From positions 1,897 to 65,896 of the forward strand of contig JBDTWD010000006.1 of NCBI GenBank assembly GCA_040006915.1: a DNA stretch of 64,000 nt, written 5' to 3'. The first letter of the stretch is position 1; each line of letters starts with the position of its first letter. A program made the position numbers and the translations under genes. Shown here piece by piece: positions 50,144 through 52,265 of this stretch. The notes beneath the pieces are model-generated. The model saw only the letters and a program-made list of their open reading frames with translations, was not told where the DNA came from and did not search any database. The DNA is from Candidatus Woesebacteria bacterium (GTDB lineage: Bacteria > Patescibacteriota > Microgenomatia > UBA1400 > UBA12028).

Positions 50144-50318
50144 ATCTGTCTCCCTTTAAATTAATTGTAAATTATAGATCTTGTTGCATTATACCGCATT
50201 TTAGGGTGATCCATACCTTAAAGGTAAGAAAGTACGAACTTGTAAACAATTACAGGAGCTTTCACCTCTAGCAACTTCGGAACATTCCGCAAAAAACCCA
50301 TGACTGTGGTTTGTATCT

Positions 50319-50592
50319 GCTCCCCGACTAGGACTCGAACCTAGAACCTTTTCGTTACAAGTGCCCTCTCATTACTGTGAGGCTTGGACTATCTCATATT
50401 CCTTTACAGGAACCCAGGTATATAGTCTCTACACATTTACCACATATTTTTTATGATACGTGGATTTAGCTCGGGATTGACCTCTCTTTTAGGAGAGGCG
50501 TCTTCCGAATTAGCCTGGTTTTTCAATCCGTATTACTACGGAAAGCTGCCGTTATTCAACAGCGAATTGCTCTACCATTGAGCTATCGGGGA
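50319..50592 (-). tRNA. tRNA-Asn(GUU) split by a 202-nt group I intron
   Basis: Exon 1 (50592-50559) is TCCCCGA-TA-GCTC-AATGGTA-GAGC-A-ATTCG-CTGT. Exon 2 (50356-50319) is TAA-CGAAA-AGGTT-CTAGG-TTCGAGT-CCTAG-TCGGGGA-G. The 7-bp acceptor stem pairs perfectly, the T-loop is TTCGAGT, and the discriminator is G73. The spliced anticodon loop is CUGUUAA. No CCA is encoded. Confidence 0.8.
50357..50558 (-). ncRNA. group I self-splicing intron (tRNA anticodon-loop type)
   Basis: P1 pairs exon GCUGU with IGS GCAGC, with a U.G wobble at the 5' splice site. P2 is CCGUA-GUAA-UACGG. P3 is CCAGG/CCUGG. P5 is CCUCUC/GAGAGG. The R-like element GUAGAGACUAUAUACC and S-like element GAGAUAGUCC form P7 (GACUAU/AUAGUC). 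P8 is UCCU/AGGG, P9 is CCUC/GAGG, and the intron ends in omega-G (..CACUUG). Confidence 0.75.
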
Positions 50593-50611: not shown

Positions 50612-50620
50612 ATTGTACCA
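50612..50620 (-). promoter_or_regulatory. extended -10 promoter element (TGgTACAAT) for the tRNA
   Basis: Minus-strand TGGTACAAT lies about 23 nt upstream of the tRNA 5' end; no good -35. Confidence 0.35.
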
Positions 50621-50644: not shown

Positions 50645-50890
50645 TTAAGTTCTGGAGATCACAATCTCGTCTCCATCGTCCTGATATGGGAGTGGACACT
50701 CATTTTGTGTCAGATTGAGATTAATACAATGATTTACACATCCAGGAGTACTCTTCAATAAATCGCAGACCTGAATCTCTGCTCCATCTCCAACGATCAA
50801 ATCAGGAAAACCAAAAACTGCCCAAGTACCAAGCCCGGTAATAATGGTGGTCTTTCGCCGATGATCGCATTTTGCTTCTTGCTCAGGCAT
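50645..50890 (-). CDS. hypothetical Cys-rich small protein
   Basis: 81 aa with six Cys; possible metal-binding. Confidence 0.35.
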   Translation of the reverse strand: MPEQEAKCDHRRKTTIITGLGTWAVFGFPDLIVGDGAEIQVCDLLKSTPGCVNHCINLNLTQNECPLPYQDDGDEIVISRT

Positions 50891-50935
50891 GGAACCACTA
50901 TAGGTTTAAGAACGATTCCTTGTCAAGAGAGATGC

Positions 50936-51095: not shown

Positions 51096-52265
51096 ATGTG
51101 GAATCCCATCCCGACTATCATTCCTCCAGGACTGCTTCAAAAACTGAAGAAAGAACAGGACGAACTGCGTGCGCAGATCATTCTCTCCAAGCCACCCTAT
51201 CCAATTCACATCATTTCTGGCTGTGACAGTGCGTTGATCGGTGATGATATTTTTTCCGTCTTTGTCACCTTCTCCTATCCAGACTTAAAAGAACTCGAAA
51301 TAGTCACCAAACGCTCTCCTCTCCCACTTCCTTATATCCCTGGGTTTTTAGCCTTCCGGGAGATTCCCAATCTTCTCTTGGCATATACCAAGCTCAAAAC
51401 CAAACCAGACCTCATCATGGTCGACGGCCAAGGGATCATGCACCCTAGACGTATGGGTATTGCAACTCATCTGGGGATTAAGCTTCAGGTTCCAACCATA
51501 GGCGTCGGTAAAAGCAAACTATTTGGAACATATAGTGAACCTGACCTTGCGCCAGGCTCTTTCACTTCTGTCACCCATAAAGAAGAAGTCTTAGGAATTG
51601 CGTTGCGCTCTAAACTGCGCAGTAACCCCCTGTTTATCTCTCCCGGATACTTATGTGACATCGAAACTGCGAAAAATCTCGTCCTCGCTACCTTACGTGG
51701 ATATCGCCTGCCCGAACCCACACGGCTTGCGGACAAGTATTCTAAAATCTTAAAACCCGCCCAGTCTCTAGAAGAAAAAGCACGTACAATGAATCAAATG
51801 ATCAAACCGAATACTCCAGCACCAGACTTCTCCCTTCCCGATCAGGATGACACTATTCGAACACTATCTGACTATAAAGGGAAATGGCTCGTAGTCTATT
51901 TTTATCCGAAGGATGATACGCCCGGATGCACCAAGGAGGCCTGTTCGTTTCGCGACAATTCACACAAACTGTTAAAGCGCGAGGTGGCTGTCGTCGGAGT
52001 CTCGAAAGACAGTGTCAAATCTCATAAAAAATTTGTTGATAAATATTCCCTTCCCTTTACGTTGCTTTCTGATCCAGAAAAAGTGATGATCCACGCCTAT
52101 GGAGCTTGGGGCACAAAGAAATTTATGGGACGAGAATATGATGGCATTTTGCGTACGACTTTTTTAATTGATCCCACAGGCATCGTCAAAAAAGTGTACG
52201 AGAACGTAAAACCCGATGAGCATGCGATCGCTATCCTTCAAGATATTGAAGCTCTTTCCGTGTAG
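51096..52265 (+). CDS. nfi: endonuclease V fused in-frame to peroxiredoxin Bcp/PrxQ
   Basis: Residues 1-230 are EndoV-like (DSALIGDD..YIPGFLAFREIPNLL..MVDGQGIMHPRR..GVGKSKL). Residues about 250-389 are Bcp-like (APDFSLPDQDD..WLVVYFYPKDDTPGCTKEAC). No stop codon separates them. An internal Met (MNQMIKPN) could also initiate Bcp on its own. Confidence 0.75.
   Translation: MWNPIPTIIPPGLLQKLKKEQDELRAQIILSKPPYPIHIISGCDSALIGDDIFSVFVTFSYPDLKELEIVTKRSPLPLPYIPGFLAFREIPNLLLAYTKLKTKPDLIMVDGQGIMHPRRMGIATHLGIKLQVPTIGVGKSKLFGTYSEPDLAPGSFTSVTHKEEVLGIALRSKLRSNPLFISPGYLCDIETAKNLVLATLRGYRLPEPTRLADKYSKILKPAQSLEEKARTMNQMIKPNTPAPDFSLPDQDDTIRTLSDYKGKWLVVYFYPKDDTPGCTKEACSFRDNSHKLLKREVAVVGVSKDSVKSHKKFVDKYSLPFTLLSDPEKVMIHAYGAWGTKKFMGREYDGILRTTFLIDPTGIVKKVYENVKPDEHAIAILQDIEALSV

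Follow-up and report, generated by a model that had tools for sequence, protein, structure and literature searches.

The question raised by this locus is whether two tRNA halves that lie apart on the minus strand form a single gene, and what kind of sequence separates them. In the window (the whole 64-kb stretch of DNA analysed here), ARAGORN finds 0 tRNAs in the raw sequence. We consider it very probable (about 0.93) that the gene is a tRNA-Asn(GUU) split between U35 and U36 by a compact, ORF-less group I intron of 201 nt that belongs to the known 35/36 family. The parts of the gene are as follows.

50592-50559, minus strand: tRNA-Asn exon 1, 34 nt, tRNA positions 1-35, ending C32 U33 G34 U35; 3' end AUUCGCUGU; full sequence TCCCCGATAGCTCAATGGTAGAGCAATTCGCTGT
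50558-50358, minus strand: ORF-less group I intron of 201 nt (Rfam RF00028, covariation)
50357-50320, minus strand: tRNA-Asn exon 2, 38 nt, positions 36-73, U36 A37 A38 ... discriminator G73; 5' start UAACGAAA; full sequence TAACGAAAAGGTTCTAGGTTCGAGTCCTAGTCGGGGAG

A previous reading of the locus from its letters and open reading frames (the sequence-only reading) had proposed a tRNA-Asn(GUU) host gene interrupted at 35/36, and had suggested submitting the intron-deleted sequence to a tRNA finder. Run with ARAGORN, that sequence gives a canonical 73-nt tRNA-Asn(GTT) cloverleaf. The U-1.G pair in P1 and the terminal G of the intron are both obtained only with the 35/36 boundary, and the insertion is therefore assigned to this site, as had been proposed; the intron length given in that reading, 202 nt, has to be corrected to 201 nt.

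Relatives were reached through homologues of the PNPase encoded in the window. One of them, L122 (Logan SRR28640819; PNPase 85% identical), carries an uninterrupted tRNA-Asn(GTT) gene at L122:14339-14411 that is identical to the predicted spliced product at 72 of 72 positions, exon 1 matching its 5' part exactly; the exon assignment and the identity of the host gene are thus confirmed by a natural sequence. Another, L124 (GCA_018060955.1; PNPase 83% identical), also has an uninterrupted tRNA-Asn(GTT), at L124:18358-18432. In both contigs the gene follows PNPase at a distance of a few kb and is oriented as in the window; L123 (PNPase 94% identical) stops short of the tRNA locus and was left out. 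The 3' CCA is not encoded at the window tRNA-Asn, where G73 is followed by CAG (50317-50320), unlike the L124 orthologue, which encodes CCA (L124:18430-18432).

The window is part of a bacterial chromosome, with genes for PNPase, a DEAD-box helicase, endonuclease V/AhpC, an AcrB-type transporter, iPGM and a PAS histidine kinase. The PNPase is 100% identical to a protein from a Candidatus Woesebacteria MAG, and the next named matches come from Cerribacteria, Pacebacteria, Woesebacteria and the 'Patescibacteria group'; judging by these named matches, the host is a member of the Patescibacteria, class Microgenomatia.

Fold and conservation of the intron

The Rfam covariance model of group I introns (Intron_gpI, RF00028), a match to which the sequence-only reading had named as a check of its proposal, aligns over its full length (1-253) to 50568-50365 on the minus strand with 71.2 bits (gathering score 50; E 4.4e-16), and no other Rfam family attains its gathering score in the 64-kb window. 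At -64.6 kcal/mol, the MFE lies well below that of shuffles, -44.7 +/- 4.3 (z = -4.6), and the unconstrained MFE fold yields P1, P2, P3, P4, P5, P6, P8 and P9. The structural elements are listed below, with the intron numbered 1-201, 5' to 3' on the minus strand.

50545-50563, minus strand: P1, exon GCUGU (G31-U35) and intron UG (U1-G2) paired with CGGCAGC (intron 8-14)
50527-50542, minus strand: P2 hairpin UCCGUA-GUAA-UACGGA (intron 17-32); changes on both sides at 6/6 pairs; in the MFE fold
50514-50518, minus strand: P3 5' strand CCAGG (intron 41-45); partner 50414-50418; 3/5 pairs covary, 100% of cells paired
50471-50508, minus strand: P4 UCGGAA/UCCCGA around P5 (P4 is intron 51-56 with 83-88), nearly invariant; Rfam alignment and MFE agree
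inside 50471-50508, minus strand: P5 hairpin GCCUCUC-CUAAAA-GAGAGGU (intron 60-79); covaries; Rfam alignment and MFE agree
50440-50463, minus strand: P6 hairpin CCACGUAU-CAUAAAAA-AUAUGUGG (intron 96-119); changes on both sides at 8/8 pairs; in the MFE fold
50422-50429, minus strand: P7 5' strand GAGACUAU with a bulged A (intron 130-137); invariant in 11/11 homologues; pairs with 50386-50392
50414-50418, minus strand: P3 3' strand CCUGG (intron 141-145), after the 3-nt J7/3 (AUA)
50399-50412, minus strand: P8 hairpin UUCCU-GUAA-AGGAA (intron 147-160); changes on both sides at 5/5 pairs; in the MFE fold
50386-50392, minus strand: P7 3' strand AUAGUCC, the S element (intron 167-173); part of the GAGATAGTCCRAGCC motif
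50365-50382, minus strand: P9 hairpin CCUCACA-GUAA-UGAGAGG (intron 177-194); 4/7 pairs covary; one A.A mismatch
50358, minus strand: terminal guanosine (omega-G), G201, at the 3' splice site

The wobble pair U35.G10 of P1 sits at the 5' splice site, as the sequence-only reading had claimed, and all 11 homologues have the P1 pairs C-4:G, U-3:A, G-2:C and U-1.G unchanged. The 5' strand of P7 is the R element conserved in group I cores and includes the G:C pair presumed to bind guanosine. The GAGATAGTCCRAGCC motif is common to all of the at least 120 loci found by the pattern scan described below, and omega-G is present in 108 of the 108 resolved loci among the matches listed, the search pattern itself having demanded a G there. 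The single A.C mismatch in P4 (A55/C84) is probably tolerated, because the same mismatch occurs in L114, a compact relative. Since J7/3 consists of AUA only, the window copy has no P7.1/P7.2. On inspection of the sequence, the 3' exon showed no convincing complementarity to the guide that would form a P10. ORFs that overlap the intron are at most 42 aa long, the longest (42 aa) lying on the opposite strand, in agreement with the claim that it carries no homing endonuclease ORF.

Most of the helices had been read correctly before, namely P1, P2, P3, P5 and P7 together with the terminal G. Two entries need amendment: P8, given as UCCU/AGGG, is UUCCU/AGGAA, and P9, given as CCUC/GAGG, exists as a helix, but its pairing reads CCUCACA/UGAGAGG with the A.A mismatch. 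P4 (UCGGAA/UCCCGA) and P6 (CCACGUAU/AUAUGUGG) were missing from that helix list and are present.

To the Rfam score and the conserved core, which support the group I identity proposed earlier, covariation adds further evidence. In a MAFFT alignment of the window copy with 8 compact relatives and 2 published Microgenomatia tRNA-Asp introns, pairing is kept in 93% of the pair cells, a share that falls to 35-49% when the partners are slid, and none of 500 shuffles attains the observed values. Changes on both sides occur in 32 of the 58 pairs: every pair of P2, P6 and P8 covaries, as do three of the five in the long-range P3, and no change is seen in P7 or in most of P4. The peripheral helices stay paired through compensatory changes, which points to selection on the fold; the overall pattern is that of a ribozyme whose fold is selected.

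A described family and its distribution

The statement of the sequence-only reading that it knew of no described tRNA-Asn intron, or of insertion at 35/36, is superseded by the literature. Williams 2020 (bioRxiv 10.1101/2020.01.27.920355) enlarges the set of tRNA intron classes in bacteria from 4 to 21, and according to PMC13011429 its list includes a tRNA-Asn 35/36 class, 'Asn.4Ug'. Nakagawa et al. [quoted passage not shown] Two family members were shown there to undergo GTP-started self-splicing in vitro, with the ligated tRNA sequenced, and an omega-G to C mutation abolished exon ligation. By covariance-model classes, 25 of 28 introns at 35/36 were assigned to IA and no Patescibacteria tRNA intron to IC, and among the complete genomes endonuclease-bearing IA introns at 35/36 were found only in Patescibacteria (PMC13011429).

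Over aligned columns, the window intron is 67-78% identical to the published family members and has the core motifs in common with them. The most similar is the validated 196-nt Microgenomatia tRNA-Asp intron (78% identity, 185 aligned columns), which has the same compact architecture with J7/3 = AUA; identity to the published Microgenomatia tRNA-Asn intron is 71%, and to the validated Saccharimonadia tRNA-Asn intron 68%. The window copy is nearer to the published Microgenomatia tRNA-Asp introns than to the published tRNA-Asn intron of that class. It agrees with the Patescibacteria introns of Nakagawa et al. in phylum, tRNA and site, in the CUGU/GCAG guide pairing with its U.G, in the core motifs and terminal G, and in the lack of an ORF, which is the prevalent condition among them; its contig lies outside their 95 complete genomes. 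The window intron is of a kind already known, and the phylum of its host is the one in which this described family is commonest.

To chart the family, a species-representative genome collection was scanned with a pattern consisting of the P7'/P9 motif and the T-arm, with position 36 left free, which matched at least 120 loci in more than 100 species genomes. Both exons could be resolved in 108 of the matches listed, and all 108 are tRNA-Asn(GTT) genes split at 35/36. Record titles among the matches listed name Nitrospirota, Aminicenantes/Acidobacteriota, Elusimicrobiota, Methylomirabilota/Rokubacteria, Deltaproteobacteria, Binatia, Omnitrophota, WOR-3, Bipolaricaulota, Patescibacteria and others. 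The family of tRNA-Asn/Asp 35/36 introns is enriched in Patescibacteria and present in many other phyla. The same pattern gave 0 matches in viral contigs, and a phage collection contained no match for the tRNA region (blastn) or the surrounding 20 kb (megablast); the intron is chromosomal and not visibly phage-borne. In L101, an Aminicenantes MAG, two pattern matches lie within ~1.4 kb on the same strand, which suggests two tandem intron-bearing tRNA-Asn genes.

The closest locus among the matches listed, L118, is 82% identical to the window over the whole 273-nt pre-tRNA and syntenic with it, with EndoV, AhpC and the DEAD helicase showing 65-84% amino acid identity. In the window, a 389-aa ORF (51096-52265, plus strand) combines an endonuclease V domain (23-214) and an AhpC/TSA peroxiredoxin domain (239-366) in one chain, whereas in L118 the two domains are unfused and ~1.2 kb apart.

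Intron lengths among the matches listed fall into three groups, ~181-234, ~241-351 and ~460-570 nt. In 94 of the 108 resolved loci among the matches listed, a 40-50-nt insert separates P7 from P3', making the P7-to-P7' module ~80-85 nt long, against 35 nt in the window; the other 14, the window included, have a compact segment of 32-41 nt without P7.1/P7.2 (window 50358-50558, L019, L037, L039, L046, L060, L062, L078, L086, L089, L093, L103, L114 and L118). All 14 compact copies come either from records with Patescibacteria titles or from 'binchicken' MAGs whose exons match Patescibacteria copies. The window intron therefore looks like a trimmed derivative, and such trimming may run parallel to genome reduction.

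Several 'binchicken' TPA MAGs (L039, L046, L062, L078, L081, L114 and L118) are titled Pseudomonadales or Gammaproteobacteria, and their tRNA-Asn exons and introns match those of Collierbacteria, Gottesmanbacteria or the window lineage. Among the 'binchicken' titles as a whole, which also include Eubacteriales, the matches are to copies from Collierbacteria, Gottesmanbacteria or Aminicenantes. The deposited names look wrong by this comparison and were excluded from the taxonomy.

Long introns of ~500-565 nt (L003, L017, L028, L034, L040, L041, L063, L074, L092 and L104) contain, close to their 5' end, an HNH endonuclease-like ORF of 105-166 aa that bears the motif CxxC...HH...CANCHREVH; titles of these loci include Nitrospira, Deltaproteobacteria, Elusimicrobia and others. 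A Pfam search with three of the ORFs returned one sub-threshold HNH match (E 0.002) and no match for the other two, and it is mainly by the motif that the products look like endonucleases. The window copy differs from these ~550-nt members in having no ORF, and its lack of an endonuclease ORF also sets it apart from the class of mobile, endonuclease-bearing group I introns.

With regard to subgroup, the tRNA-Asn introns of Nitrospirota and Bipolaricaulota (Table S5 of PMC13011429, labelled IA1) interrupt the same tRNA at the same site and share GCAGCUU, GAGACUA, GAGAUAGUCCRAGCC and ...CUUG|UAAC with the window; they are 248-347 nt long and have the ~40-50-nt P7-P3' insert of the P7.1/P7.2 type, an IA1 feature that is absent in the window copy. 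The classical IC3 introns of bacterial tRNAs (Anabaena/Nostoc tRNA-Leu(UAA) at 34/35, Azoarcus tRNA-Ile at 36/37, tRNA-fMet at 33/34 and tRNA-Arg(CCU) at 36/37) are likewise small ORF-less ribozymes of the anticodon loop with a P1-P9 layout, a short J7/3 and a guanosine-initiated mechanism, the last applying to the window intron by analogy; they differ from it in tRNA, insertion site and sequence family. The Azoarcus intron, at ~205 nt, is similar in size to that of the window. We assign the window intron to no subgroup: its short J7/3 and size resemble IC3, a label that was considered, but in sequence it is related to the Asn/Asp introns published as IA.

Splicing and alternative explanations

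The tRNA gene is preceded by a promoter-like element:

50612-50620, minus strand: extended -10 element TGGTACAAT, ending 19 nt ahead of the tRNA

A simple sigma-70 scan did not flag this element. The consensus TGnTAnAAT also precedes the tRNA, with the same spacing, in L118, L086, L114, L093, L060 and L037 (6 of the 8 compact relatives) and in both intron-less contigs, L122 and L124, and because of this recurrence the tRNA-Asn gene probably has its own promoter. A sigma-70-like site at 50897-50926 on the minus strand (TTGACA, 18-nt spacer, TATAGT; 11/12 matches to consensus) lies upstream of an 81-aa ORF (50645-50890, minus strand) that directly precedes the tRNA, and read-through transcription into the tRNA, besides initiation at its own extended -10, is possible.

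Group I introns are spliced by an established two-step, guanosine-initiated mechanism. Here, the gene would be transcribed from its own extended -10 promoter. As the sequence shows, the end of exon 1 in the precursor and the internal guide pair as P1, where the position of U35.G10 marks the 5' splice site. Sequence conservation and covariation show the core, P3 to P8, which folds with P7 as the presumed guanosine site. By homology and established group I chemistry, an external guanosine would attack after U35, and G201 would replace it in the P7 guanosine site, so that the 3'-OH of U35 could attack after G201, ligate the exons to give the anticodon loop CUGUUAA and release the intron. We infer that the window intron is self-splicing, because an intron 78% identical to it splices in vitro.

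An improbable alternative is that the element is a true group I intron that is inefficient alone and, after the loss of P7.1/P7.2, needs a protein helper, such as a chaperone or maturase. The window intron is one of the 14 in 108 resolved loci among the matches listed that have no 40-50-nt P7-P3' insert, which is what such dependence would build on. Loss of peripheral elements often reduces the stability of group I folds. Against this stands the 196-nt tRNA-Asp intron, equally compact and with the same J7/3, which self-spliced without protein in vitro (PMC13011429).

Still less probable, to the point of being very unlikely, is that the intron is a catalytically dead relic and the split tRNA-Asn a pseudogene, with another gene supplying tRNA-Asn. 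All core elements are intact and identical to those of homologues from other genera, compensatory changes keep the peripheral helices paired, as expected of selection on the fold, and the exons match a functional-looking intron-less gene at all 72 positions; nor does ARAGORN find any other tRNA in the 64-kb window. The mismatch in P4 would fit decay, and the intron-less tRNA-Asn genes of L122 and L124 indicate that the intron-less state is viable in the lineage.

That the exons are joined at other boundaries to give another product, for example tRNA-Thr, is scarcely credible: ARAGORN in intron mode (-i) does report a tRNA-Thr(AGT) with a 184-nt intron, and two-base-shift ambiguities and mis-calls as Thr(UGU) at 33/34 are published for the family (PMC13011429), but the 'tRNA' of the ARAGORN model is 90 nt long and has an additional, aberrant arm, boundaries moved to 33/34 or 36/37 leave the intron ending in U and lose the U.G of P1, and the 35/36 product is that of a natural intron-less tRNA-Asn gene.

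Intron gain and loss, and consequences for annotation

Intron presence varies among close relatives in the Woesebacteria-like lineage: the orthologous tRNA-Asn gene that follows PNPase carries the intron in the window and in L118 and is continuous in L122. Together with the greater similarity of the window intron to published tRNA-Asp introns of Microgenomatia than to a further tRNA-Asn intron of that class, this presence and absence among orthologues is the basis for a tentative and, in our view, rather doubtful suggestion that the ORF-less 201-nt ribozyme is still moving, through recent gain or precise loss and by hopping between tRNA-Asn and tRNA-Asp. The tetranucleotide CUGU at positions 32-35 is common to the two tRNAs. 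Possible routes of such mobility are reverse splicing and an HNH endonuclease supplied in trans.

The value of the locus is mainly practical, as the default tRNA finder misses the gene (ARAGORN reports none, and its intron mode mis-calls a tRNA-Thr). Without intron-aware annotation the genome would seem to have no tRNA-Asn, and completeness estimates would be affected for the worse; that intron-unaware annotation hides such tRNAs is a point already made by Nakagawa et al. (PMC13011429). The copy adds one compact member to a described family and opens no new question, and the window, paired with its intron-less L122 orthologue, is convenient for the study of tRNA intron gain and loss in Patescibacteria. 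If the window gene is the sole tRNA-Asn gene of its host, the decoding of all Asn codons would need ribozyme activity.
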